Of a stretch of DNA of 41,076 nucleotides, positions 10,288-26,672 are shown piece after piece (positions within the stretch are counted from its first letter, which is position 1; each line of letters opens with the position of its first letter). The notes below the pieces were generated by a model. It was not told the DNA's origin. It saw only the letters and a program-made list of their open reading frames with translations, and searched no databases. The DNA is from Candidatus Bathyarchaeum sp. GTDB taxonomy: Archaea > Thermoproteota > Bathyarchaeia > Bathyarchaeales > Bathyarchaeaceae. The stretch is taken from NCBI GenBank assembly GCA_026014495.1, contig JAOZIF010000192.1:1-41076 (forward strand). Direction: 5' to 3'. The translations under genes were made by a program, and so were the position numbers.

Positions 10288-10463
10288 TTTATTGCATGTT
10301 CACCGGTGGTGAATTCACCGGCAACTATACATCCACCGTTTTTGGTTACTCACTTTATATTTTAATCATACTTCAGCTGTTCACTTATTTCCTGTTACTT
10401 AAATACATTTAAAAGGGCAGTGGTTGTTTTTGAGTTAATGTTTAACTTTGTAGGTGTACGTTT

Positions 10464-10673
10464 TTGGTGAAATGGGAGTATAGTGTACTTGCGTTAAAGA
10501 CTAAAATTCATATTAGTCCGCGTGAACGCGAACAAAATCCTGTCCTGCAAAATGTGCAAACTGACTTGAATGATTTGGGGGAACAGGGGTGGGAATTAGT
10601 GTGCGTTCAAAACGTTCGTTTAGAAACTGGTATGCTGTTTACTGTTGCATACCTTAAGCGCGAAAAATCATAA
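10464..10673 (+). CDS. DUF4177-domain protein
   Basis: KWEYSV...LNDLGEQGWELV pattern. Confidence 0.8.
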   Translation: MVKWEYSVLALKTKIHISPREREQNPVLQNVQTDLNDLGEQGWELVCVQNVRLETGMLFTVAYLKREKS

Positions 10674-10701
10674 TAAACTCTGTAATCAGCAGAGTATAAC
10701 T

Positions 10702-10902
10702 TTAGAGATAATACTTGTGGTCTTTAGTTTTCTTTATGCTGCCTAGAAAAGAGCCAGCAAAATAGTCTAACCAGCACTGTTCCTGAACATCTAGTTTAGC
10801 CTCTGAAAAAGTTACAGCCGTTTCCTCTGAAACAGCTCCCACTTTCTCAAATTTTCTGATAATCCGTTGACGCATTTTAAATTGAATCCCCGACATAGAC
10901 AA
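10702..10902 (-). CDS. Small hypothetical protein (possible winged-helix-like)
   Basis: Protein-like 66-aa ORF (IIRKFEKVGAVSEETAVT...KKTKDHKYYL) filling an intergenic gap. Confidence 0.6.
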   Translation of the reverse strand: MSMSGIQFKMRQRIIRKFEKVGAVSEETAVTFSEAKLDVQEQCWLDYFAGSFLGSIKKTKDHKYYL

Positions 10903-11097
10903 CTCGTATCATGCTTCCTATTTTCACTTACAGAATACTCAAAATAAACGACAAACCACTGCACGCCTTTTTGTCGTCATTCACTAAGAGAATTCTACGG
11001 GCTAATATAAGGCAGCGTTGCATATATAGCGTGCGGGTTTTAGGCTACTTTTTGCTTTTACTGTTTTGTCCCTCTATTTGTTGATTGCCCTGTTCTG

Positions 11098-11478
11098 TTA
11101 AACATTGATTTTCTTTGGTTTTCCTTCCCAAACTCCGTGTAGGTTACAAAATTCTTGTGCCCTTAGTGTGGTGGACTCGTTCAAGGTTACATTAAGTGTT
11201 ACAACGTAGCCATCTGACAGCTCAGCGCCAAACTCTATCTTAGAAATTAATCGTTCTCCCGCATAAAGTGCAACCCAGTTTATCCAGTGGCTCAAAGTGT
11301 TAGGGTGCTCAACTCCGTCTATTCCACCGACCTTAATTTTCACGACAAAAGGTTCGTTGGCTTTAACGTTGCTTGGGGCCTCAATTATGGGCACATGTTT
11401 TTTTGCCATTACAGGTAGATTACTCCAGTCTGCTGGTTTGTTTAATTCAGTTAAAGAAAACTCTTTTTCGGTACTCAA
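11098..11478 (-). CDS. sor: Superoxide reductase, 1Fe neelaredoxin type (class II SORL domain)
   Basis: KKHVP, EHP, SHWI and CNLHG give the four His plus one Cys iron ligands. GGGAG RBS, TTG start. Confidence 0.9.
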   Translation of the reverse strand: MSTEKEFSLTELNKPADWSNLPVMAKKHVPIIEAPSNVKANEPFVVKIKVGGIDGVEHPNTLSHWINWVALYAGERLISKIEFGAELSDGYVVTLNVTLNESTTLRAQEFCNLHGVWEGKPKKINV

Positions 11479-11527
11479 AAATTACAACTCCCAAAAAATA
11501 CTGCTTTTCGGAGTCTAAAAAACATTC

Positions 11528-13084
11528 TTATATCTTCACTTCTACGCCCTTTTCTGGTCTATGAACTTTTCCTGCAGAGTTCCTAAACATTTCAGGATGT
11601 TGTGTGTGAACAGGAACCAACATCTTTGGTTTGATTTTATCGATCATCTCTTGTATTTCAGGACCAGACGCGTGACCGCTGGCATGAATCTGATGTGGCT
11701 TCCAGCCATTATCAGTGTTGATGTTAAAGTGCTTTAGCCAACGTAACAGCCGCTTATGCGAAAGCTCCATCTTAGGATTAAACGGTTCACATTGTGCTCT
11801 CACAAAAACGGAGCCTTCTGGAAGCTCAAAGTCTAGGATATTCTTGAACCTAAAATAATCTAAGTGCAAAACGTAACTGGACGGGTTCTCGTTAAGTTCA
11901 AGAGCAGAAACTCCCTTCTCAAGATGCTTTGTATCCACCACTATATCGTCGCGTTTGTTGCTCCATTCCGAAAGCGCCATGTCTCCAACTTTGTGTTTGG
12001 AGTTGCTATAATCTCCCGGAGAATAAAGCATTGACCCACATCTTTCAAGAAACACTCTGGCGCCCTCATCATATGCGCTTCGTCCAATCCTGCCCAACAA
12101 ATATGCTAACCGCGGATCAAAAACTGGAATTCTGCCACTCTTTATTGCTGCATCACGCACAGTCTCGTACCTGTCTATGTCCTTCCATGTGAATCCAACC
12201 ATTGCCAAGCCTTTGCATTTAGAAAATATGTCCGTTAGGTCTGTTTCCACTTGTTTTTCGTTGTCCGGCTCTTTTTTGTCAATGCGTGTTCCTTCACAAA
12301 ACATTACATCCGGCTCAAGGCCACATAATTCATCGCCTAAATTGTAGCCAGACTTGCCATGAAATCGCACATCTCCAGTATACAACACCTGTGTGCTTTT
12401 ATTTTCTACAAGGCACGCCATTGATCCTGGTATCGAGTGGTCCACATTAAATCCTGTAACGGTGAATTTGTTGTTGATTGTCTGGGCTTTTTTGTGTTCC
12501 AGATTACAGAATTCCCTGTTTGCCTCTTGTTTTGAGTAGCCGATTTTGGGTTCGCCCGGAAAATATCCTGTTTTTAGCTCCCCCATCTCGCGCTCCTTTG
12601 TGGCTGTTAGTTGTTTGTCTAAGCCCTGCAGGTTTCCAATTTCAGCTACTGCATCCATCAGTTTTTGGGTCATCTGAGAACATAAGAACGGAAATGCGCC
12701 CAGATATGGGGCATACCCGCAGTGGTCTAGGTGCGCATGTGAGATGAATACTGCGTCAGGGCGCCACGAGCCTGTTTTTGTTGCATCTTCAAACGTTTGT
12801 ACATCTGTTTTCCACAACTTTTCTGCCTTAATATTGTAGTCTTCAAAATCTGTTGGGCATATGGCGTCTTGCCTGTAGATTCCGTCTATTTGTGGTAATA
12901 GTCCCAGTTTCAGTAAATCGTGTATTTTGCATCCTGATCGTGGCTGCAAAAATTCTTCAAAAAACTGGCTTTCTTCACTGTATGATAAGCCAAAATCGAG
13001 GAACATGGAACCTTTGTCGAGTTTGACAAGTATTTTGTTTCCTCCAATGTCATCTACTCCCCCATAGCAAGTGAATTTAATCAT
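11528..13084 (-). CDS. Metallo-beta-lactamase fold, beta-CASP family nuclease (RNase J-like)
   Basis: GGVDDIGGNK, FLDFG, HAHLDH, DHSIPG, YTGD, CEGT, HASGH and PVHTQH motifs. Start placed at ATG 13084. Confidence 0.85.
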   Translation of the reverse strand: MIKFTCYGGVDDIGGNKILVKLDKGSMFLDFGLSYSEESQFFEEFLQPRSGCKIHDLLKLGLLPQIDGIYRQDAICPTDFEDYNIKAEKLWKTDVQTFEDATKTGSWRPDAVFISHAHLDHCGYAPYLGAFPFLCSQMTQKLMDAVAEIGNLQGLDKQLTATKEREMGELKTGYFPGEPKIGYSKQEANREFCNLEHKKAQTINNKFTVTGFNVDHSIPGSMACLVENKSTQVLYTGDVRFHGKSGYNLGDELCGLEPDVMFCEGTRIDKKEPDNEKQVETDLTDIFSKCKGLAMVGFTWKDIDRYETVRDAAIKSGRIPVFDPRLAYLLGRIGRSAYDEGARVFLERCGSMLYSPGDYSNSKHKVGDMALSEWSNKRDDIVVDTKHLEKGVSALELNENPSSYVLHLDYFRFKNILDFELPEGSVFVRAQCEPFNPKMELSHKRLLRWLKHFNINTDNGWKPHQIHASGHASGPEIQEMIDKIKPKMLVPVHTQHPEMFRNSAGKVHRPEKGVEVKI

Positions 13085-13145
13085 AAACTGCAGCCCCACA
13101 ACAAGAGTTAGTTCTCAAGAGCCAAATATAAAACGTGCCAAACTG

Positions 13146-13724
13146 TCATGTTTTTTCTAGAAACCTATAGATTGCCAAGTCATATTGTGCGGTTTCTTTG
13201 AATGCTTCCACCGCCAAAGCTTTTCTTGTTTTGGCACTTACCTCACCGTTTTTCTTGTATTCTATTATGATTTGATTGTACCTTTTGGGGTTAACAATCA
13301 CAACTACGTTTTCAAAATTTTTTGCTGCTGCCCTAACCATATTAGGCCCACCTATGTCAATATTTTCTAGGGCTGTTTTTAGGCTCGCTCCTTGTTGTGT
13401 TACCTTTACAAAAGGATACAAATTGCAAACAACCATGTCAACCGGTTCCGCTCCAAACCTTTCAAGCTCGTTCATGTGCTCGTTTTTGTCTCTTTGTGCA
13501 AGTATGCCCCCCATCAGTTTTGGATGCTCAGTTTTGACTCTGCCTTCCAGTATTTCAGGAAAGCCTGTAACCTCAGAAACGTGTTTTAGGCGTTTAACTC
13601 CACCCTTCTTTAGGCTTTCTAGTGTTCCGCCTGTCGAAATTACTGTAAATCCCAATTTGTTTAGTTCTTTGGCAAAGTCAACTATTCCTGTTTTGTCGTA
13701 AACTGAAATCAGGGCACTCTTCAT
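13146..13724 (-). CDS. purH: Stand-alone IMP cyclohydrolase (PurH N-terminal MGS-like domain)
   Basis: SVYDKTG, STGGT, TGFPEILEGRVKTEHP, VCNLYPF, IDIGGPNMVRAAAKN. No AICAR transformylase domain. Start placed at ATG 13724. Confidence 0.9.
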   Translation of the reverse strand: MKSALISVYDKTGIVDFAKELNKLGFTVISTGGTLESLKKGGVKRLKHVSEVTGFPEILEGRVKTEHPKLMGGILAQRDKNEHMNELERFGAEPVDMVVCNLYPFVKVTQQGASLKTALENIDIGGPNMVRAAAKNFENVVVIVNPKRYNQIIIEYKKNGEVSAKTRKALAVEAFKETAQYDLAIYRFLEKT

Positions 13725-15840: not shown

Positions 15841-17301
15841 TCAATCCATAACCTCTGTGAAAAATAGCCTTGTTTGTCCCATTGTCTTGATATCCAGTGC
15901 CCTGACTTTTGCCATTACAGGAAAATCGTTAACCGCTTTTCCAATGAGCAAACAGTGATGGGGTGGAAGTTCCTGAGCAATAGACTTCACAGTTTCTGAA
16001 TCAACTCTTGCGGCCTTTGATACCGTCTCCAAATCGCGGCCATTTGTGAAGTTGAACAAAAAGATGCTGTCGGCTTGGCGGTAGATGTTCTCTTTTATTG
16101 TGTCAGGCTGATTAGTTACAAAGTTAGTAAACAAACCAAAATGTCTCATTCGAGTAACAATATCTTCCCAGTACGTTTCCCTGAGGTAAAGATGAGCCTC
16201 CTCAGCAAACAAGAAAACGGACTTGAGCTTCCACTGCCCCAAAAGTTTCACAAGATTCCCAAGAGTATACTCTAGCACAATCTGACGGTCAACGGCTGAA
16301 ACATCCTTTAAGTTAATCACCAGTGCTCCGCCGTCATTCTTTGTTTTTTCAAAGAGCTTCTCAAAACTTGTTGCTGACTCTTCGTTGTCTGTAAAAAAGC
16401 CCGAATTTACAAGACTATAATAACGAGAAAACAGGGCATCACGCACGTGCATGTTTCCTCCTGATTGTTTGATTGCTTCTCCAAGCGCTTCAAGAGAGAT
16501 GTTTCTTTGTTGGCACAACGTTTTCCATATGTGCTTAAATTCTCTGGTGGATGTTCCGGGTAGACCCAGCGCGTGAATCATTATCTTTAAGATGACGCTT
16601 AAGCCCATCTGAGCCAAAGACACCTTGAAGTTGGCTCCTGGAGTAAGTACATGCACTCTGCTGCTGTACTGGTTTTCTCCTCCTTTTGTGGACAGCCCCA
16701 GTCCAGTGTATTCGCCGTTAAGGTCAAGAACCACAACCGTGGCCTTGTAGTCAACAAGCCCCAAAACAAGCAGTTTTGAAAGATGCGACTTTCCCGTTCC
16801 CTTTTTGCCTGTTATGATGTTTAGTCTACCATCAAGGTCATGAGCTGTTATGCTCAAAGGCGAACCATCATTTGTTACGCCAATGTTAATGGGAAGCTCT
16901 TTGTTGCAACCAACATGCGCCAGCAACGCGTTGATTGGAATTTTTGTGATTCCCGACTTGGAGCGGCTAGGAAGCCACGAAGAATTAACGCGTAGTGTAT
17001 CATTTTGTATTGTTCCCCTGATTTTGCAGATGAGCATTCGAGCGTCTTGTATGTGGTTTATGTGTGACGAAACGCCTAATGGGTCAAAGTCTTCGCCATA
17101 AATTTGTTCTTCGGATGTGGAATCACGCAGAAGCTCTTCAAGAAGCCCTGGAACCGCTGCGAACTGAACATCTATTACCTGTGTAATTAGTTTCCTGTTG
17201 ATTGTTGTGTCCTCTACGAGAAGATAATCGCCCTTCTCAACATCGTCGCTTGGGGCGCTGAGAATCTGGATGCTGTTTCCCTCTTTCTTGTAGAGCCTCA
17301 T
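15841..17301 (-). CDS. herA: HerA-like/DUF87 ATPase with N-terminal HAS-barrel-like domain
   Basis: Walker A GKKGTGKS, VVLDLNGEY, Walker B FLFAEEAH and Arg-finger RMRHFG. ATGA overlap with the upstream NurA-like gene. May be a paralog rather than the ortholog. Confidence 0.75.
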   Translation of the reverse strand: MRLYKKEGNSIQILSAPSDDVEKGDYLLVEDTTINRKLITQVIDVQFAAVPGLLEELLRDSTSEEQIYGEDFDPLGVSSHINHIQDARMLICKIRGTIQNDTLRVNSSWLPSRSKSGITKIPINALLAHVGCNKELPINIGVTNDGSPLSITAHDLDGRLNIITGKKGTGKSHLSKLLVLGLVDYKATVVVLDLNGEYTGLGLSTKGGENQYSSRVHVLTPGANFKVSLAQMGLSVILKIMIHALGLPGTSTREFKHIWKTLCQQRNISLEALGEAIKQSGGNMHVRDALFSRYYSLVNSGFFTDNEESATSFEKLFEKTKNDGGALVINLKDVSAVDRQIVLEYTLGNLVKLLGQWKLKSVFLFAEEAHLYLRETYWEDIVTRMRHFGLFTNFVTNQPDTIKENIYRQADSIFLFNFTNGRDLETVSKAARVDSETVKSIAQELPPHHCLLIGKAVNDFPVMAKVRALDIKTMGQTRLFFTEVMD

Positions 17302-18386
17302 TGTTTTGCCTCTCCTCCTTTTCCGAAGGGACCAAAAAGCATCCGCCGCACATTTGGTCTTGTAACTATCTTGAGACTGTACTGATGCGCTATGAAACGC
17401 TGGATTCCAATAACTTCAGTGGCTGTAAATGTTGAATAAATGTGAGCCAACCGCAACGTTTCAGGGTAGCTTTGAACAAGAAGGTCGCTTCCAAGAAGAC
17501 ACTGAACCGCTTCTATTCCCTGCTCTTTTGGAACCTTTTTGTCGATGTCTAGCCTAAACGCGCATACTCCACGAGTTAGTTTTGCGACGTAAATGTCTCC
17601 AAGCAGCAGGACTGAACCTTGAACTGCTGGAAAGTTGCCTATTTGAAGAAGGCATGGAGGCACAGCTTTTTTTGCATAATCTGTTAGTTTGTGACCTGAA
17701 AACCGCAGGTTAGTATTCTTGGAGAACGCTAAAACCGTACTTAGGCGGTTTCTTGCGGTTTCTAAAAGCCTAGACATTTCATCAACTGGACAGTCAAGCA
17801 TTCCTGCTGTCATGGAACCGTCCCATAGGATGATTGTGCTGTATGCTGAGCAGGAGATGCTCAGTTGGAGCATACGCTCAAGCAGGTTGCCCATTCTGGC
17901 TTGCATGTTGATTGTGTTTGGGGTTTCTGAGAATTCAAAGTGGCTGTTTTTGAAGAGTTTGTGGATTTCTTTTTTGTTTTGTTCTGTTATGTGAAAAGGG
18001 AACGGTCCTATTCTTTGGTATTTGTATCTGTTCTTTTGTTTCCAGACGATTGCGCCTCTTATTGCGCATAGTTCACCTGTTTGTGTTTCTCCTATGTGTA
18101 TGCTTGAGACGTCTACTGCGATGACTGGTTTTTCGTTTGTTGTTGGTTCCAGTGGGATTGTCTTTATTGTGGATGGTTGTTGAATCTTCATGATTGGTGT
18201 TGCGTCTGCAATATTGTTTGTTGGAGGTTTGTTGAGGTGTGCTTGGTTGGGTTGTAGGTAGCGGCTTTTTATGTTTTTCATGGTGCTTTGGCTTAGTTCT
18301 ATGAATGTTTGTGGGAGTTGTATGTGTTCGATGGAGGGTGGTAAGTTATATGTTGGTGTTGTTGTATAGTTTAATTGTTCAATCAA
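17298..18386 (-). CDS. nurA: NurA-like nuclease
   Basis: VIAVDVSS, ILWDGS and SYPETLRLAH match the NurA acidic and C-terminal motifs; coupled to a HerA-like gene. Confidence 0.7.
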   Translation of the reverse strand: MIEQLNYTTTPTYNLPPSIEHIQLPQTFIELSQSTMKNIKSRYLQPNQAHLNKPPTNNIADATPIMKIQQPSTIKTIPLEPTTNEKPVIAVDVSSIHIGETQTGELCAIRGAIVWKQKNRYKYQRIGPFPFHITEQNKKEIHKLFKNSHFEFSETPNTINMQARMGNLLERMLQLSISCSAYSTIILWDGSMTAGMLDCPVDEMSRLLETARNRLSTVLAFSKNTNLRFSGHKLTDYAKKAVPPCLLQIGNFPAVQGSVLLLGDIYVAKLTRGVCAFRLDIDKKVPKEQGIEAVQCLLGSDLLVQSYPETLRLAHIYSTFTATEVIGIQRFIAHQYSLKIVTRPNVRRMLFGPFGKGGEAKQ

Positions 18387-18898: not shown

Positions 18899-19150
18899 TT
18901 AGAAATACTCTTTTAGTTCACTCCACTTTGCAACAAAATCCCGTCCCCTATCGGTTGTCACATATTTTGTTGGCTCATCTTTGACTTCCAATAGACCATG
19001 CTCTTGCATGTAACCAAGATAATGCTGGAGCATTCTCCATGACAGGTTTGTGCCATACATAACTCTGGTTTTGCTCTTTGGTTTTGAGCATAAACCAAGA
19101 ATCTCTGCCATAATTTCTACGCGGTCTCTCTTAGTACCCATTACGCTCAC
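18899..19150 (-). CDS. Small winged-HTH protein (HTH_45-like)
   Basis: RDRVEIMAEIL...KTRVMYGTNLSW...YVTTDRG. Confidence 0.85.
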   Translation of the reverse strand: MSVMGTKRDRVEIMAEILGLCSKPKSKTRVMYGTNLSWRMLQHYLGYMQEHGLLEVKDEPTKYVTTDRGRDFVAKWSELKEYF

Positions 19151-19860: not shown

Positions 19861-20160
19861 TTACTTTTTTGGTTTCCAAATACACGCTATAGCATTCTGG
19901 CTGCACGCCACAACACAAGGTACATTGCCTTCTTCAGGTTTGCATGATGAACATGTGTACCTGATTTTTTTGCGTTGCTCCTCAGTGACTGCGGCTACCA
20001 TTTTGTCTTCGAGGTCAATAAACATGGCTTCCATAACCAAGGCGCCTTCAGGACAAACCTTGATGCAGTCACCGCAGCTATTGCATTTCTCTGCATCGAT
20101 AACTATGTAATATTCGCCTGAACCGTCAGTGTAGCCATAATATGTTATGAACGCTCTCAC
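19861..20160 (-). CDS. 2x[4Fe-4S] ferredoxin, BzdM-like
   Basis: YGYTDGSGEYYIVID-CNSCGDCIKVCP...IRYTCSSCKP-x6-PCVVAC. The N-terminus resembles ferredoxins of bzd-type benzoyl-CoA reductase clusters. GTG start overlaps the upstream stop. Confidence 0.85.
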   Translation of the reverse strand: MRAFITYYGYTDGSGEYYIVIDAEKCNSCGDCIKVCPEGALVMEAMFIDLEDKMVAAVTEEQRKKIRYTCSSCKPEEGNVPCVVACSQNAIACIWKPKK

Positions 20161-21068
20161 CCTCTAACGTTTTGTGATTTTTCGTACAATGCTTTAGCAA
20201 ATAAGGCAGCTCCAATGGCGCCTGCAGAAGCTGGGTCACGTCCGCTTTCGTCCAAGTTTGGAACCGGAAGTCGCTTTATACCAAGTATATTCTCTACTCT
20301 GTGTACTAAACCTATGTTTTTGGATTGCCCACCAGTGATTACAAAGTCTTTTTCACAGCCCACTTTTTCTATTAGTTCACTCATTCTGGTAGCCATGGCA
20401 CGAAGATATGCAGCTAACACTTTTTCTTTGGTCCAGCCTTTTCGTAGTAGTCCAACTGCCTCACTTTTTGCGAAGACTACACAGGTGCTGCTTACTGGCT
20501 CTGGCTCTTCAGTTACGCTAAGAGACACTTTACCTACATCTTCAATGGGTATCTGTAGCAGGTCAGCGATGACTTCCATTCCTCGTCCCGTGCCTGCCGC
20601 ACATTTATCATTCATCAAAAACGAGACTACTTTTCCTGTTTCGTCACATCTGATTGCCTTAACGTCTTGTCCGCCAACATCTAGAACCGTTCTTACTGTG
20701 GGTCCCCAGATGTAATTGGCGCCTTTGGCATGGCATGCAATTTCTGTGATTGCCCTGTTTGCCATGGGAACGTTTACTCTGCCGTACCCTGTTCCCACAA
20801 TATACTGAAAATCCTTTAGTGTTAAACCCGTGCCTTCCATAGCCCATCCGAGCGCTTTGTTTGCGCTGTCTGAGCTGTTTGAGCCCGTTCTCATAACACT
20901 CCACGCATATATCTCGCCATCAAGCATGATTACTGCCTTGGAGCCAACCGAGCCAACATCCACTCCTGCTGTTACTATTTTTGCGTCTTTCCAGTTCATG
21001 TTTGGCATGGATTTTCTGTACTCGAGCCATCTCCAGTATTCGGTTTTTCCGTTGTTATTGTTGGTCAT
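20157..21068 (-). CDS. bzdQ: ATP-dependent activase subunit, BzdQ/BcrA-like (ASKHA fold)
   Basis: EYWRW N-terminus, AGVDVGS, TGYGR, LDVGGQDVK, NDKCAAGTG, SSTCVVFAKSE. Confidence 0.8.
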   Translation of the reverse strand: MTNNNNGKTEYWRWLEYRKSMPNMNWKDAKIVTAGVDVGSVGSKAVIMLDGEIYAWSVMRTGSNSSDSANKALGWAMEGTGLTLKDFQYIVGTGYGRVNVPMANRAITEIACHAKGANYIWGPTVRTVLDVGGQDVKAIRCDETGKVVSFLMNDKCAAGTGRGMEVIADLLQIPIEDVGKVSLSVTEEPEPVSSTCVVFAKSEAVGLLRKGWTKEKVLAAYLRAMATRMSELIEKVGCEKDFVITGGQSKNIGLVHRVENILGIKRLPVPNLDESGRDPASAGAIGAALFAKALYEKSQNVRG

Positions 21069-21073
21069 TTTGT

Positions 21074-21859
21074 TTAGTGCCTCCTTTTTGCTCGTTTGGC
21101 TGCAACTAATGCGGCGCCCACTGCGCCAGCGTATATTGGTTCTTCAGGTATTAAGATGTCAATTCCCAGCCGTCTTTTAAGAGAAGCAACAAAACCCACA
21201 TCTTTAGCTACTCCGCCAATAAGCACAACATCTGGAGTTACTCCAAGCCTATTGACCATAGAGGAGACCCTCTCAGCCATTGCATCAAAGATTGCTCGTG
21301 CGATTTCGCTTTTGGGTTCTTCTCGGTGAATCAAAGAAACTACGTCTGATTCTGCGAAGATTACGCAACTTGCGTTTATTGGGCTTGCCCGTTCTGCATT
21401 CAGGGACAATGAGCCCATATCATTCATTTCCACTTCTAGTGCTCTTGCCATGGCTTCGATGAATGTGCCTGCTCCTGCTGCGCATCTTGCGTTTACAACA
21501 AAGTCCATCATTACTCCGTTTTCGTCACATTTTACTGCGCGTGCGTCCTCAGCTCCGACGTCCATTATTGTTCTGGCTGATGGGAAATAGTATGCTCCTG
21601 CTTTTGCGTCTGCTCCCATCATGCTTATTGTGCTGTCTGCAAAGGATGCCATGTTTACGCCTGCACCTGTGGCTGTTATGTGTTCTATGTCTTCGCGGGA
21701 CAGTTTTGCGCTTTCCAAAGCCTCTTTTAGTGTTTGTTCAGCAACTTTGGCTGGTTCAAATCCTGAAAAGTTTTGGCTCTGAGCGATTATTTGTTTGTCT
21801 TTTATTATGGCCACTTTCACCCTTTGGGTGCCCATATCTATTCCAGCGGATATCATCAT
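21074..21859 (-). CDS. ATP-dependent activase subunit, BzdP/BcrD/HgdC-like
   Basis: AGIDMGT, DVGAEDAR, NARCAAGAG, NASCVIFAESD, VGAALVA. Confidence 0.85.
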   Translation of the reverse strand: MMISAGIDMGTQRVKVAIIKDKQIIAQSQNFSGFEPAKVAEQTLKEALESAKLSREDIEHITATGAGVNMASFADSTISMMGADAKAGAYYFPSARTIMDVGAEDARAVKCDENGVMMDFVVNARCAAGAGTFIEAMARALEVEMNDMGSLSLNAERASPINASCVIFAESDVVSLIHREEPKSEIARAIFDAMAERVSSMVNRLGVTPDVVLIGGVAKDVGFVASLKRRLGIDILIPEEPIYAGAVGAALVAAKRAKRRH

Positions 21860-21873
21860 CGTTTGTTCTCCTT

Positions 21874-23208
21874 TTATATGTCGATTCTTGCTTCAAGCAT
21901 TTCTAAGAATGCTTCTACTCTTGTTTTCATTTGTCCAACATCTTCTCTTGTGTATTCTGTGTCTAGGTAGTATACGGGTATTCCCATTTTGTCTAGTACC
22001 TTTTTTATTCGGGCGTATTCCATTGCATAGAGGATGCATCCTCTGACCACGTAGTAGATTACGCCGTCAACTTTGTATTCTTTGATTCTGTCAATTATCC
22101 AGTTTATTCTGTCTTCATTTCCATGCTCTGACGTGAAGCAAGGACATGTGCATGCCATGATGTATCGTTCGCTTATGGCGTTTAGCATGTCGCTCATGTT
22201 CCATTCGTCTACTCCAACTGGGTCATACAGAATTCTGTCGCTTGAACACTGCTCGTCAACAACAACTACTCCCTGCGGGTTAGATTCTTCAATCAGGTTG
22301 GGCACCTTCCAGCTGTCAGGCCAAATCATTGGAGTTCCTGTAATCATAACCCGTGGAGTGTCAGGATACGAGGAATAATCTTTTTGTTCAACCCGCTTTT
22401 CAAGCTCATCGCACAACTCGTTTACTTTTTGGGTCCAACGTTCAATGTCGTCCCAGAGGCTTGTTTGGTTCACCAGCATGGCGTCTCTTCCATTTATCAC
22501 AGGTGCACCTTTCCTTAGTTCCTGTAGTCTGCGAAACGCCTTTGTTGCTTGCTGCATCTTCTCTATTGCTTCTTTGAGTTTTTGTCTAGTGATCTTGTTT
22601 CCTGTCAGCTTCTCAATTTTCTCTTTTATTACTAGTATCTCTTTTTTCCACATGTCCAATGTGTGGGTGTCATCTTTGACTCGTGGAGGATTCATGTACC
22701 ATATCGGCTTAAAGTCTGACAACATTTCGCTCAGTTTGGTTCTGCCGTCACATGTGAGAGGAATTACTATGGCGTCGCTGAGCTCAAGATACGGAGACAA
22801 ACTTACCATCTTTGCGCCCACTGTAGAGCGGATGACTGGACAGATTTCGACGGGCATGATTCTGTCTCCTAGTTTTGCTGTGTCATACCACCCTGAGCCT
22901 ACGCGAACTGGGATGGCGTCTGCCGCTAAAATCAGTTCGATTGGCGCGAATATGCAGGAGTATCCAATAATCTTTTTTCCTGCAGCTTTTTGTTCTTCCA
23001 GCTCTTTTGCGCGTTTTCCAAAAAGGTTTGAGATTTCATCGAAGTATTCCATGGCTTTTGGTCGATTCTTCCATGTTTTTTTCATTCTTTCGATGTTGTC
23101 TTCAATCACTTTAATGGATGCAGCTTTAATCGATTTGTTTAGTTCATCGATTTCACTTTGAGCCATTTCAGGGATATATTTTGGTTCTTTTTCGATTTTG
23201 CTTGCCAT
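21874..23208 (-). CDS. Double-cubane-cluster (DCCP)-like reductase of the 2-hydroxyacyl-CoA dehydratase family
   Basis: NRPKAMEYFD, KVNELCDELEKRV, PRVMITGTP, GQMKTRVEAFLEM. Cys85, 123, 153 and Cys321, 355, 391 fit the 3+3 double-cubane ligand pattern. Confidence 0.75.
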   Translation of the reverse strand: MASKIEKEPKYIPEMAQSEIDELNKSIKAASIKVIEDNIERMKKTWKNRPKAMEYFDEISNLFGKRAKELEEQKAAGKKIIGYSCIFAPIELILAADAIPVRVGSGWYDTAKLGDRIMPVEICPVIRSTVGAKMVSLSPYLELSDAIVIPLTCDGRTKLSEMLSDFKPIWYMNPPRVKDDTHTLDMWKKEILVIKEKIEKLTGNKITRQKLKEAIEKMQQATKAFRRLQELRKGAPVINGRDAMLVNQTSLWDDIERWTQKVNELCDELEKRVEQKDYSSYPDTPRVMITGTPMIWPDSWKVPNLIEESNPQGVVVVDEQCSSDRILYDPVGVDEWNMSDMLNAISERYIMACTCPCFTSEHGNEDRINWIIDRIKEYKVDGVIYYVVRGCILYAMEYARIKKVLDKMGIPVYYLDTEYTREDVGQMKTRVEAFLEMLEARIDI

Positions 23209-23218
23209 TCCGTTTTCC

Positions 23219-24397
23219 TCATTCTTCTTCGTTTAGCCAGTTTTTGGATTTGTAGATTGGTTTGCCTGCAACTTCCACTTTTAGACAGCCCTCGTATGGG
23301 CACATTTCTACGCAGCGGAAGCATAGTATGCAGTCGGATACGGTTACGTCGCCTCCTTTTTCTTCGTAGACGTCAGTAACCTGTGGTGGGCACACTCGTT
23401 TGCATATGCCACATTTTGTACATTTTTCTTCTACTTTAGTTATTTTGATGGGTGAAAGCCGTTTGAAGGGTCCAAATCTGCTAAATATTGCGATTAGTCC
23501 ACCTAGTGGGCAGATTCGGCACCATAGGCGTCTTACCATAAATGAACCTACAGTTACTATGCCTAGAATAACAATGTTAATTGAGGTAAGATACCACCCT
23601 GTTAATGCAAAGTCTCCTATTGTTCTGGATAGGGCATAATCGATGTCCATGTATCCTAAGCCACTTTCTACGAGCACAAACAGGGGTTTAGCGGGACAGA
23701 CTTGGCAGAACGGTATTTCTAGGTATCGTCCCAGTTCTGACTCTGAGACAAGCTCTATTCCTGCGATGGCGTTCATGCCTAAAATAAAGCTGAGTATCAA
23801 AAATGCGGCTATAATCAGGTATCTGGATTGCTTTAGCATCTCGTTGGTTCTTTCTGAAAGCGTCCAATGTTTGATTTTCAGGGCTTTTCTTAGGCGAGTT
23901 AGTAGGTCCATGTACAGCCCGAATGGGCATATCCATCCGCAGAGGAATCTGCCAAAAATTAGCGAAAATATGACAAGAAAACCTGTGGCGATTGCCAGTC
24001 TTTCTATGCCCGTTGTGAGGTACACGTTACTTGTTGCGTAGTCGGGGAACAGGTAGCTTTGGAGTTGCCAGACTACACAGGTTGCTGTTCTTCCGGATGC
24101 ATAGTAGCATGAGAATGTGGGCACAGTTAGTCCATCTGGGTATGGTGACCCTAGAATGTTTGTGCCTACTACTATGTCCCTTGGTGCTGTGCCAAGATAC
24201 GCCCACTGGTCTAGTCCAAAGGGTCCAATTATTAATCCCAGAAAGATTACGGCTACTGACACTATCTGGATGAAAAGGCGCATGGCGCTTAGTTTTCTTG
24301 TGAGGTTTTTAACCCAGATTAGTATCGCCAGTATTCCAGCTAAAATCAGCCCTACTGCTATTGTTGCCCGCAACGTTTCTGCAACGATTTCCAGCAT
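23219..24397 (-). CDS. Membrane-bound 4Fe-4S protein, NapH/MauN/FixG-like
   Basis: Several TM helices; GRFLCGWICPFG, FCQVCP, WCRICPLG and two ferredoxin motifs (CTKCGICKRVCP, CILCFRCVEMCP). Confidence 0.9.
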   Translation of the reverse strand: MLEIVAETLRATIAVGLILAGILAILIWVKNLTRKLSAMRLFIQIVSVAVIFLGLIIGPFGLDQWAYLGTAPRDIVVGTNILGSPYPDGLTVPTFSCYYASGRTATCVVWQLQSYLFPDYATSNVYLTTGIERLAIATGFLVIFSLIFGRFLCGWICPFGLYMDLLTRLRKALKIKHWTLSERTNEMLKQSRYLIIAAFLILSFILGMNAIAGIELVSESELGRYLEIPFCQVCPAKPLFVLVESGLGYMDIDYALSRTIGDFALTGWYLTSINIVILGIVTVGSFMVRRLWCRICPLGGLIAIFSRFGPFKRLSPIKITKVEEKCTKCGICKRVCPPQVTDVYEEKGGDVTVSDCILCFRCVEMCPYEGCLKVEVAGKPIYKSKNWLNEEE

Positions 24398-24415
24398 CCC
24401 TGTTTTTTCTCCATT

Positions 24416-25099
24416 TTAGATGATTGTTATTATTGCGTTAAGTAATACGCCAAGTCCCATTGCAACAAGGGCTATTCCTCCAATTTTTGATAGCCACTTA
24501 CTAAAGAGCGGTGCCTTGTTTAGAAGCCAGCCTGTTGCTCCTCCAAGAATCAAAAGCGGAGATAATGCAGTTCCTAGTCCAAACAGAACCGCTACAAGTG
24601 TTAAATTAACCTGTGAAAGTGTCACCGCATACAAGAGAAGCCCAACTAAGGCAGGGCACAATACAAGACCTCTAGTGAATCCCATACTAAATGCGCGCAG
24701 GTCAAACCTGTTTGTTAGTTTTGAGATTCCAAACCTGTCTGACGTTTGTTCTGGGCAGTCGCATTTGGTGCCCGATTTTTTCATCAATATTGTTGCTCCA
24801 ATGAATATGACTATTGCTGCGAATGCAAAAGAAGAATACTCTTGATATGCGCTGAGGATTTCCTCGCTTACTACCACACTGAGCAGCCCCACTGCTGTTC
24901 CTATAATTGCATATGCCAATATGCGGCCTGCGTTGTAGATTGTGGTGACTGCAAGTCCTTTTTTGAATCCTGCTCCTATGCCTGCGATGTAACTTACAAT
25001 GTATGGAAGACACGCAGAAGTGCAGAAAGTGAGCCCATACAGTAGCCCTAAAACCAGAGAAGCAAGGTAAGGATTCGAAATCTGCTCTAGCACAGTCAT
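24416..25099 (-). CDS. DsbD_2 / TauE-SafE / UreH-like polytopic membrane protein
   Basis: GLLYGLTFCTSAC, YNAGRILAYAIIG, GFTRGLVLCP, FGLGT; 6-7 TM. Start ATG 25099 preferred over TTG 25201. Confidence 0.8.
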   Translation of the reverse strand: MTVLEQISNPYLASLVLGLLYGLTFCTSACLPYIVSYIAGIGAGFKKGLAVTTIYNAGRILAYAIIGTAVGLLSVVVSEEILSAYQEYSSFAFAAIVIFIGATILMKKSGTKCDCPEQTSDRFGISKLTNRFDLRAFSMGFTRGLVLCPALVGLLLYAVTLSQVNLTLVAVLFGLGTALSPLLILGGATGWLLNKAPLFSKWLSKIGGIALVAMGLGVLLNAIITII

Positions 25100-25316
25100 C
25101 TTAAACTTAGCCCTTGAGCTTGTTAGAGCAGAAAATACACCACCACCGAATTTAACTATTGCCGTAAAAACACAAAATAGGCTACCAATTATCACTGTCA
25201 AAACTGTAAATGTACTGGATCTTTTTCATATGACTCACATTGCCAAAAATAATCCTGCATATATGTTAACTAACACTAGTTGGGGTTCTTCCTTTGAAAG
25301 GGTGTAACTGACCGAA

Positions 25317-26672
25317 CTATTTGCGTGAGAGAAAGAGAACAACCGTTGGTCCTGAGCTAATAATCATTATACTGCCAAAAAACGCTATTAAGAAACCTAA
25401 TAACGAACTTCTCAGCGTAGTTACTGAACTCCATTCCATCCTTGCCGAAAGATTTATTGTTTCTTTCGTATCTACGAGGGGGTTTTCAGTTACAACATAA
25501 ATTCTGGATAGTGCTTCTTCTTTCAAAAGTGGTATAGAAAAAGAAATGGAATCTATATTCGTTTTTTGGTAATAAAACTCACATGGCTCATAATTTTTCC
25601 ATTTTTCATAATTTGTTTCATTGAGTACATACAAGTTAAATACATTGCCTGACATCTCAGTTGCTGAACCTTTGAGTACAAAATCTTTTGGTTCATTTTC
25701 ATCTTGTGTACTTGTAAAGTTTCTTACCGTAATCTTTGATAAGTCTATTTCGCGTGAGGTGTAGTGGTTTCCAAGTTGAGCCCAACTGCAACGTCCAGTT
25801 ACTAATACTGTTGGCGATTGTTCTTCGTTAAAATCATCTATTACAAAGTAGAATGTCATAGAGTCTTGGGGGACTGAGAACCCGAATGTAATAGATGTTT
25901 TTACTTCCGAAATTGGAACCTCGGTTTCATAATATGTTGTATATGTTGTTATTCCTTGAGACCAAAGATTAAAGTTGTATTCATCAAGCACGTAAATACT
26001 AAAAGGCAATTGGGGAGAATTTTGCTCCATCGCCTGTACAGTAATCTTGATGTCTTTTTTTTCGATTGTGGGGTCGTCTCCAGTATGTACTTGATATGCA
26101 GAATAAAAAGCACAACTAGCATCTATTTCAAGCGTGAATTCTTGACTTTTTGTGCTCCACCCTGTTGCGACATTAACGGGAATCTCACTTAAAAAACCGT
26201 ATTGATCTGTACTCCTAAACAGTGGACTGTCTGAAGAATCAGTCGCTGTTACAATTCCAAAGATGAAGCTGGTTAAACCTAATATGAAAAGTATGGTAAC
26301 CAAAAGTTTAGATACACGTTGCCTTTTAGCGTTAATCACTCGGTTTCTAACACCAAAACCAACGTATGAAAAGACGTAAAATGTACAAAACAGAGCAATT
26401 AGACTCAGGTATGGCAATTGAGATAAACCTTCTGTTGGAGCCCACGGATTAAATAGCGACCAAAGAAAGGCATGTTCAAAACAGAATTCGTTGGTCTCAA
26501 CTTTTTTTCCAACATTTTCCACATAATAATCAGCGCGTGCCCCACAAGCGTCGCATAATCCATCGTTATCATAGCGCCAAGTTGAGGTCATGATGTTCCC
26601 CACTAACACAAAAATTGACATTATTACCAGTGCTAGTGCCAGAGAATTTTCACTCGGCTTCAAGAGTCCCAT
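25317..26672 (-). CDS. Hypothetical multi-pass membrane protein with large extracytoplasmic two-repeat domain
   Basis: Three N-terminal TM segments, repeats FSIYVLDEYNFNLW and FNLYVLNETNYEKW, C-terminal TM segment plus RK. Confidence 0.75.
   Translation of the reverse strand: MGLLKPSENSLALALVIMSIFVLVGNIMTSTWRYDNDGLCDACGARADYYVENVGKKVETNEFCFEHAFLWSLFNPWAPTEGLSQLPYLSLIALFCTFYVFSYVGFGVRNRVINAKRQRVSKLLVTILFILGLTSFIFGIVTATDSSDSPLFRSTDQYGFLSEIPVNVATGWSTKSQEFTLEIDASCAFYSAYQVHTGDDPTIEKKDIKITVQAMEQNSPQLPFSIYVLDEYNFNLWSQGITTYTTYYETEVPISEVKTSITFGFSVPQDSMTFYFVIDDFNEEQSPTVLVTGRCSWAQLGNHYTSREIDLSKITVRNFTSTQDENEPKDFVLKGSATEMSGNVFNLYVLNETNYEKWKNYEPCEFYYQKTNIDSISFSIPLLKEEALSRIYVVTENPLVDTKETINLSARMEWSSVTTLRSSLLGFLIAFFGSIMIISSGPTVVLFLSRK

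Follow-up and report, generated by a model that had tools for sequence, protein, structure and literature searches.

A six-gene operon in a Bathyarchaeial genome

We analysed a 41,076-nt stretch of DNA (contig JAOZIF010000192.1 of assembly GCA_026014495.1, hereafter the window) from a 2.19-Mb archaeal metagenome-assembled genome (MAG) that is 93% complete, so that genes reported below as absent are genes that were not found, which is no proof of absence. The closest relatives of the source genome are labelled Candidatus Bathyarchaeum or Bathyarchaeota, and the eRF1, H+-PPase and HerA genes within the window are consistent with an archaeon. At positions 19861-25099 lie six co-oriented genes, g1 to g6 (Table 1), centred on a member of the double-cubane cluster protein (DCCP) family. 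The listing of open reading frames (ORFs) gives intergenic gaps of 18, 10, 14, 5 and -4 nt, exactly as stated in an earlier note made from the sequence alone. The ORF of g1 extends over 24416-25201; since its orthologues measure 224-233 aa, the ATG at 25099, which yields 227 aa, is the most likely start.

Table 1. Genes of the operon, with positions counted in the window
Gene	Position	Strand	Product
g1	24416..25099	-	227-aa six-helix DsbD_2/CcdA-like membrane protein (Pfam DsbD_2)
g2	23219..24397	-	392-aa NapH/NosR/CcoG-type membrane Fe-S protein (Pfam Fer4_5 + Fer4)
g3	21874..23208	-	444-aa double-cubane cluster protein, DCCP family (NF040772; HGD-D family)
g4	21074..21859	-	261-aa archerase ATPase subunit, orthologue of the archaeal Bzd short 'P' (P')
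g5	20157..21068	-	303-aa archerase ATPase subunit, BzdQ orthologue (TIGR03192)
g6	19861..20160	-	99-aa 2x[4Fe-4S] ferredoxin (Pfam Fer4 families)

Gene g3 encodes a DCCP-family protein

DCCPs are a large family of enzymes whose cofactor resembles that of nitrogenase and for which, to our knowledge, no physiological role is known; in the DCCP of Carboxydothermus hydrogenoformans, catalysis takes place at the cluster. The reference system is the DCCP/DCCP-R pair of that organism (CHY_0487/0488; PDB 6ENO, 7YYL and 7YZM; Jeoung & Dobbek). Firstly, we compared g3 with curated families and solved structures. Among NCBIfam models, g3 scored highest with NF040772 ('double-cubane-cluster-containing anaerobic reductase'; 359.5 bits, cut-off 350), followed by HadC with 110 bits, BzdN with 93.7 (cut-off 453.8), BcrC with 77 and BzdO with 26.4 (cut-off 448.6); against solved structures, the Carboxydothermus DCCP (7YYL_C/6ENO) gave 272 bits (E 1e-79), BzdN 94 and HadC 72. 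Secondly, the motifs NRPKAMEYFD, KVNELCDELEKRV and PRVMITGTP align with this DCCP, and Cys85, 123, 153, 321, 355 and 391 are in register with the Cys ligands of the [8Fe-9S] cluster in 6ENO (ligand numbering of the 2020 review, PMC7317905). These six Cys are invariant across a 30-sequence family alignment and kept in 81 of 82 aligned rows, the lone exception being an outgroup row resembling benzoyl-CoA reductase (BCR). Thirdly, we searched with the AlphaFold2 (AF2) model of g3 (predicted local distance difference test score, pLDDT, 91.7), in which the N-terminal helical extension of DCCP is present. Foldseek aligned this model with 6ENO at template modelling (TM) scores of 0.88/0.92 (E 1.7e-34, 428 columns, 35% identity), BzdN ranking behind (0.76/0.89). 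By sequence and predicted structure, g3 was shown to be a DCCP-family protein with all six [8Fe-9S] ligand Cys, and the earlier note had rightly set it apart from BzdN and BzdO on its DCCP motifs and a 3+3 Cys set.

The likeness to DCCPs holds for the six ligands and fails at a seventh position. Column inspection of the alignment revealed Gly104 in place of the family's seventh conserved Cys, which is Cys94 in the Carboxydothermus DCCP and stands beside the opening above the cluster (PMC7317905). All members of the Bathyarchaeia orthologue group have N, S, G or Y here; of the 53 other rows, 45 have Cys. BzdN also lacks the seventh Cys and has the local P-V-R-V motif in common with g3. It does carry an [8Fe-9S] cluster, and its double-cubane is an electron relay, not an active site (PMC11971306); DCCP and class I BCR, which the earlier note had treated as separate designs mixed at this locus, are therefore closer to each other than it supposed. 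Seven-Cys motifs define DCCP classes I and II, and in DCCP the N-terminal extension closes a CoA-sized channel (PMC7317905); class III proteins also lack the seventh Cys but are fused to their own reductase. Because g3 combines the extension of class I with the six-Cys set of class III and yet is unfused, it fits, on its sequence, none of the three classes of the 2020 review. E. coli YjiM/YjiL, an uncharacterised class II system, likewise pairs a DCCP-family protein with an adjacent activase; YjiM, about 31% identical to g3, nevertheless has no N-terminal extension, keeps the seventh Cys, and comes with one activase and no membrane partners.

The ATPase pair and the ferredoxin descend from a Bzd operon

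In Bzd-type class I BCR, BzdO is the catalytic, CoA-binding subunit. Structural references for this type are BzdNOPQ with its ferredoxin (PDB 8S02) and MbdNOPQ (9GAI). The g4 product is a generic acyl-CoA dehydratase activase (TIGR00241, 209.5 bits) matching no specific equivalog, with cluster Cys at 126 and 165 and the phosphate-2 motif D-V-G-A-E-D in place of D-I-G-G-Q-D. By contrast with this generic assignment, g5 passes the BzdQ model TIGR03192 over its full length (390.1 bits, cut-off 380.2) and has both the BzdQ-type N-terminal extension and the two cluster Cys. Both subunits are strongly conserved overall, and the expectation that each activase contributes two Cys was borne out in 45 loci; the activase tree showed that g4 and g5 are not recent duplicates of each other. 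In g6, the second cluster motif reads C-x2-C-x8-C-x3-C.

Like the Carboxydothermus pair, the operon thus partners its DCCP with archerase-type ATPases that carry a Cys pair for a bridging [4Fe-4S] cluster. Unlike it, the operon has two different ATPase genes, both of Bzd-operon descent, instead of one cognate homodimeric DCCP-R, and adds a dedicated ferredoxin and two membrane proteins; the DCCP-R chain 7YYL_E is only the fourth-best PDB match of g4 and g5.

No curated models exist for the archaeal P' subunit and the Bzd-operon ferredoxin. We located archaeal Bzd operons through adjacent activase pairs encoded elsewhere in the genomes of other archaea with a NapH-DCCP pair and then widened the loci. 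The order BzdN-BzdO-P'-Q with a closing ferredoxin was found in Thermoplasmata and in one unclassified archaeon. In one Thermoplasmata operon (L203), the NCBIfam scores are 537 bits for BzdN (cut-off 454), 669 for BzdO (449) and 443 for BzdQ (380), and its short P' has the same score profile as g4. Identities to this operon reach 52% for g4 with P', 68% for g5 with BzdQ and 44% for g6 with the ferredoxin, as against at most about 41% for g4 and g5 with single DCCP activases. A complete BzdN-BzdO-P'-Q-ferredoxin operon (L210) also occurs in a sister genus of the same Bathyarchaeia family, and g6 is 62% identical to the ferredoxin that closes it. In the tree, the g4 clade of our operon is sister to the P' of this Bathyarchaeial operon (support by the Shimodaira-Hasegawa-like approximate likelihood ratio test, SH-aLRT, 97) within the archaeal P' clade (100), and the clade of archaeal BzdQ proteins (100) likewise encloses the g5 clade. 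Where other NapH-linked DCCPs have a single activase, it clusters apart (94) and reaches only 150-170 bits with the BzdQ model, and BzdQ references were over the cut-off in none of five bacterial genomes with NapH-linked DCCPs. A first tree, built without true Bzd references, had placed g4 with weak support among the activases of soluble DCCPs; adding the archaeal Bzd operons overturned this placement.

From these identities and the nesting in Bzd-operon clades, it follows at the sequence level that g4-g5-g6 is a P'-Q-ferredoxin cassette recruited from a Bathyarchaeial BzdNOPQ-ferredoxin operon, its order kept and a single DCCP-type protein replacing BzdN and BzdO. The proposal that the locus is a hybrid of two designs is thereby literally true in an evolutionary sense.

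Two related archaeal loci differ at this end. In Methanomassiliicoccales (L202; G406:C1:1479000-1497000), BzdQ is followed at 10461-13367 by a 968-aa formate-dehydrogenase-alpha-like protein (HoxU/NuoG-like N-terminus, Fdh-alpha 844 bits), which stands where the Thermoplasmata operon has its small ferredoxin and may be a built-in electron source. The contig from Hecatellales stops after its activases.

Two membrane proteins head the operon

The g1 product (Pfam DsbD_2, E 2.5e-19) is encoded by the sole DsbD_2 gene of the genome. It resembles CcdA/DsbD-type thiol-disulfide transporters and UreH-like DsbD_2 proteins in its six helices and in the Cys of its first and fourth transmembrane helices (TM1, C-x3-C-x-P; TM4, Cys-Pro), and has in addition a C-D-C motif in a lysine-rich loop predicted to be cytoplasmic; helix count and loop side were read off the sequence by eye. 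The locus differs from those of CcdA and DsbD by having neither cytochrome c maturation genes nor a thioredoxin partner. The ArsG model gave only 42 bits (cut-off 200), and a literature search on PF13386/DsbD_2 returned nothing relevant.

The g2 product has the Fer4_5 architecture (Pfam Fer4_5, E 4.5e-14, with Fer4 domains). As in NapH, NosR and CcoG, a helical membrane domain, here of five predicted helices with two invariant C-x3-C-P motifs, precedes a C-terminal 2x[4Fe-4S] ferredoxin domain with eight Cys; the two motifs and this domain are predicted to be cytoplasmic from the positive-inside rule only. It is not a NapH equivalog: NapH/MauN models gave 79.5-85.6 bits against cut-offs of 213-234 (85.6 against 213 at best), and the locus has no NapG/NapC, NosZ or cbb3 context. 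It forms a Fer4_5 subfamily encoded directly beside DCCPs. Its identity to the partner proteins of Sulfurovum (E 4e-40) and of a Methanomassiliicoccales-type contig (E 1e-46) is 29-32%. Two further Cys pairs, C96/C106 and C-Q-V-C-P, lie in predicted outer loops; they are common to most partners outside Bathyarchaeia and lost in a short form frequent in a second Bathyarchaeia family. A fold search with the g2 model returned ferredoxin-domain matches only and no solved structure for the membrane part. The genome encodes five Fer4_5 proteins, four of them outside the operon (308-562 aa; contigs C82, C174, C153 and C103, loci L177-L183).

The membrane genes accompany a whole branch of DCCPs

We surveyed the operon within Bathyarchaeia at 44 distinct loci, namely the window, three loci from protein look-ups and 40 species representatives. 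Both activases lie downstream of the DCCP at all 44 loci, the ferredoxin is present at 43, a NapH-like gene lies directly upstream of the DCCP at 34, DsbD_2 is found at 30, and all six genes occur together at 22; at such counts, the arrangement is not due to chance. Orthologues occur in 12 of 12 species of the genus and in most of the second family. There, the gene for a CARDB surface protein usually stands first in the operon (24 loci), and nine loci have a CDF metal transporter further upstream. In one complete Bathyarchaeum genome, an HMA-domain protein takes the position of g1/g2. Many second-family genomes (G347, G193, G373, G217 and others) encode a second DCCP paralogue, about 40% identical to g3.

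Beyond Bathyarchaeia, we scanned one prokaryotic genome per species and read the loci with hidden Markov models (HMMs) built from the operon. A NapH-like gene lies directly upstream of the DCCP at 16 of 50 loci from many phyla (Methanomassiliicoccales, Hecatellales, DPANN, Omnitrophica, FCPU426, Spirochaetes, Calditrichaceae, Desulfobacterales, Pseudomonadota and Sulfurovum), and it abuts or overlaps the DCCP gene (about -60 to +20 nt) from Thermoplasmatota to Campylobacterota. These loci mostly have one adjacent activase or none, and two in Omnitrophica and FCPU426. DsbD_2 recurs at the DCCP loci of Sulfurovum, Desulfobacterales and Pseudomonadota. The replicon of Sulfurovum mangrovi has the order DsbD_2, two Fer4_5 proteins, DCCP and one activase, the DsbD_2 protein at the head carrying the same TM1/TM4 Cys motifs as g1. 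Upstream of the NapH-like gene, Gram-negative loci encode a TonB-dependent receptor and a DUF4198-like protein (matches below the Pfam cut-off); in Methanomassiliicoccales-type loci, beta-propeller proteins are encoded just upstream.

No NapH-like neighbour was seen at the DCCP genes of Firmicutes, Actinomycetota, many Deltaproteobacteria or E. coli (YjiM). The DCCP tree reflects this division: a soluble clade of 31 rows (SH-aLRT 99), 30 of which have no NapH-like gene, takes in one NapH-linked Bathyarchaeota row (L124) and two Thermoplasmata rows, and on the other side stand all remaining lineages, nearly all of them NapH-linked, g3 included. The motif around Cys94, I-G-L-C as opposed to P-V-R-L-C, places the Carboxydothermus DCCP with the soluble clade and thus apart from g3. 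On this sequence survey, g2 and g1 are shown to be conserved partners of a whole DCCP branch in archaea and bacteria, their adjacency being kept within and beyond Bathyarchaeia.

Three of the loci call for separate mention. At the Sulfurovum mangrovi locus (L084; NZ_CP087125.1, 353961-367166), where all genes are co-oriented, there are additionally two TonB receptor genes and an RND efflux pump; one of the two Fer4_5 proteins is NapH-like and the other measures 722 aa, with a weak DUF4198 match. A MAG labelled bacterial (Limnocylindrales, L118) holds a Bathyarchaeia-type operon (DCCP HMM 835 bits, two activases), which may be due to mis-binning or transfer. At the locus of a Patescibacteria MAG (L091), the DCCP is divergent (449 bits) and is accompanied by DsbD_2 and just one activase.

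Pathway genes in the genome and neighbours of the operon

We searched the genome for the partners that a BCR or a quinone-dependent function would have. No BzdN or BzdO subunit was found, g3 being the sole HGD-D gene, and g4 and g5 are the only BcrAD_BadFG ATPases. Neither benzoate-CoA ligase (TIGR02262, best 201 bits against 375) nor the ring hydrolase Oah (TIGR03200, 82 against 464) was over the cut-off in the genome, and no match over the cut-off was obtained for MqnA or MenA. Two candidate functions were rejected on such searches: g2 as a quinol dehydrogenase, since MqnA and MenA were not found, and a link to selenium (Haft preprint), since SelD was not over the cut-off in the genome. In the related Bathyarchaeum tardum, growth is inhibited by benzoate and benzoate-CoA ligases are absent (PMC10477458).

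Upstream of the operon and co-oriented with it, 217 nt from the g1 ATG, lies an ORF of 451 aa (25317-26672, minus strand) that has no Pfam match. Its N-terminal hydrophobic helices, long beta-rich middle and C-terminal hydrophobic anchor suggest a surface protein; it occupies the position of the CARDB surface protein in second-family operons and has no homologue at the other 43 loci. Downstream, an 83-aa ORF (18899-19150, minus strand), whose cluster is annotated HTH_45 (winged helix) at related loci, is kept just after the operon in about nine loci of the genus and could be its regulator. Further on (15841-18386, minus strand), a 362-aa protein with a weak DACND sensor-domain match overlaps a 486-aa HerA-like DUF87 ATPase by 4 nt; this conserved pair adjoins the operon in seven loci of the genus.

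Discussion

We consider it probable that the six genes together encode a double-cubane reductase that is associated with the membrane, driven by ATP and active on a small cytoplasmic substrate, and not a BCR. Reduced ferredoxin g6, the presumed donor to the ATPase pair, would pass an electron on to a [4Fe-4S] cluster shared by the two subunits of a g4:g5 heterodimer; powered by ATP hydrolysis, this heterodimer would push it further into the [8Fe-9S] clusters of a homodimer of g3, where the double-cubane cluster would reduce a small non-CoA substrate. We infer this path, from g6 over g4:g5 to g3, by analogy with class I BCR and with the DCCP:DCCP-R complex, which is the model for ATP-driven electron transfer into double-cubane clusters (PMC9351452). 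The coupling of the genes suggests that g2 anchors g3 at the membrane through its cytoplasmic ferredoxin domain; the membrane pair g1/g2 would either deliver the substrate or else pass its reducing power on. Our best guess for the substrate, a thiol or metal(loid) species, is drawn from neighbours with a metal or thiol flavour (HMA, CDF, DsbD_2, TonB receptors, DUF4198-like proteins and the CcoG-type relatives of g2), which are hints only.

Several points weigh against a cytoplasmic reductase of this kind. The margin of g3 over the NF040772 cut-off is only 9 bits, and no member of the Bathyarchaeia orthologue group retains the seventh Cys, which BzdN lacks too. We know of no solved precedent for a heterodimeric ATPase acting on a symmetric DCCP homodimer. 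Of the 44 loci, 10 have no g2 and 14 have no g1, so the core can work without them, and the guess at the substrate is built on weak and varied neighbours.

The seventh-Cys loss that the g3 group has in common with BzdN is also where a first alternative begins. The g3 cluster might be an ATP-charged electron store, as in BzdN, and not a catalytic site. Electrons of very low potential would then flow from it to the Fe-S clusters of the NapH-like protein and to DsbD_2, and on across the membrane to an acceptor that surface proteins hold outside the cytoplasm. NapH, NosR and RdhC all serve extracytoplasmic reductases; g2 has two Cys pairs in its predicted outer loops; surface or periplasmic proteins are encoded just upstream (CARDB at 24 Bathyarchaeia loci, beta-propellers, TonB receptor with DUF4198-like protein); and, MqnA and MenA not having been found, the NapH-like protein is left without its usual quinol partner. 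However, in most second-family orthologues the NapH-like protein is of the short form, in which the outer loop and its Cys are missing, the operon encodes no extracytoplasmic redox enzyme, the Carboxydothermus DCCP is catalytic at its cluster, and between a quarter and a third of the loci can do without the membrane genes. We hold this proposal to be unlikely, and judge in the same way its extension to the whole NapH-linked DCCP branch, by which ATP-charged transmembrane export would carry electrons beyond the ferredoxin potential to surface-bound acceptors. If it were true, quinone-less sediment archaea and diverse bacteria could attack refractory compounds outside the cell or in the periplasm, for instance very stable metal chelates, by reducing them, and a double-cubane protein other than that of BCR would for the first time have a physiological role.

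The membrane proteins might conversely serve as an entry point, the NapH-like protein gathering membrane electrons for the ATPase pair to boost into the DCCP. The earlier note had proposed such an input chain; its membrane genes are indeed conserved, but input is one unproven possibility, and an outward flow of electrons is just as conceivable. In Nap systems, NapH acts as a quinol dehydrogenase, and most NapH-linked loci outside Bathyarchaeia have no separate ferredoxin gene, so that the ferredoxin domain of the NapH-like protein could donate. Against this, MqnA and MenA were not found in the genome, a dedicated ferredoxin of Bzd-operon descent is retained in all but one of the Bathyarchaeia loci, and one ATP-coupled transfer would have to span a very large gap, from the potential of a quinol to that of a cluster beyond the reach of dithionite; we rate electron input as distinctly improbable. 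Marginally less credible still is the idea that g1 and g2 are unrelated neighbours, for example metal homeostasis genes, with g3-g6 as the only functional unit: both are absent at many loci of their own genus, one genome having the HMA protein instead, but the NapH-like gene abuts or overlaps the DCCP gene from Thermoplasmatota to Campylobacterota and its presence tracks one side of the DCCP tree, and DsbD_2 recurs at the Sulfurovum, Desulfobacterales and Pseudomonadota loci. The least credible reading of all, that g3 has functionally replaced BzdNO and reduces aroyl-CoA with the inherited BzdP'Q and ferredoxin, can appeal to the Bzd descent of that cassette, to a distribution in the family that looks complementary (BzdNOPQ-ferredoxin in one genus, DCCP-P'Q-ferredoxin in its own) and to the link of these lineages with lignin and methoxylated aromatics (PMC10477458, PMC12694404), but is very unlikely because a BzdO-type catalytic subunit and a second HGD-D gene were not found in the genome, g3 reaches only 94 bits for BzdN and 26 for BzdO, the extension closing the CoA-sized channel in DCCP (PMC7317905) is present and modelled, and the pathway is missing, with neither benzoate-CoA ligase nor ring hydrolase over the cut-off and B. 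tardum itself inhibited by benzoate.

This bears on published annotation. The Joint Genome Institute (JGI) names the g3-type gene BcrC/BadD/HgdB, and g5 passes the BzdQ cut-off, so the mislabelling as BCR that the earlier note foresaw does occur; some NCBI records, however, already read 'double-cubane-cluster-containing anaerobic reductase'. In the Bathyarchaeum tardum paper, three adjacent genes are called 'BcrACD', BcrB being undetected (PMC10477458), and a 2025 review cites BCR as a Bathyarchaeia trait (PMC12694404). Papers that take this operon as evidence for aromatic-ring degradation are very probably wrong, and 'BcrACD' or 'bcr' calls of this type in Bathyarchaeia are not evidence for anaerobic aromatic-ring reduction. 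Our literature search found no paper combining the double-cubane cluster with NapH or with Bathyarchaeia and none describing the operon. It is new here that the ATPase-ferredoxin cassette is traced explicitly to archaeal BzdNOPQ-ferredoxin operons, including that of the sister genus; that the DsbD_2/NapH/DCCP link extends into bacteria and the DCCP tree has two sides; that the seventh Cys is lost as in BzdN; and that quinone, selenium and benzoyl-CoA pathway genes were not found.

In the Bathyarchaeia enzyme, the two-subunit ATPase and the ferredoxin of a BCR have taken the place of the original activase, and electron-activating modules are therefore interchangeable between catalytic partners. 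The NapH-linked DCCP branch to which it belongs is conserved in Bathyarchaeia, which are among the most abundant sediment archaea. The genetic link between a whole DCCP branch and a NapH-like membrane protein, which holds across many phyla, offers a handle on DCCP physiology, and the operon makes the question of that physiology testable in a defined and widespread system.

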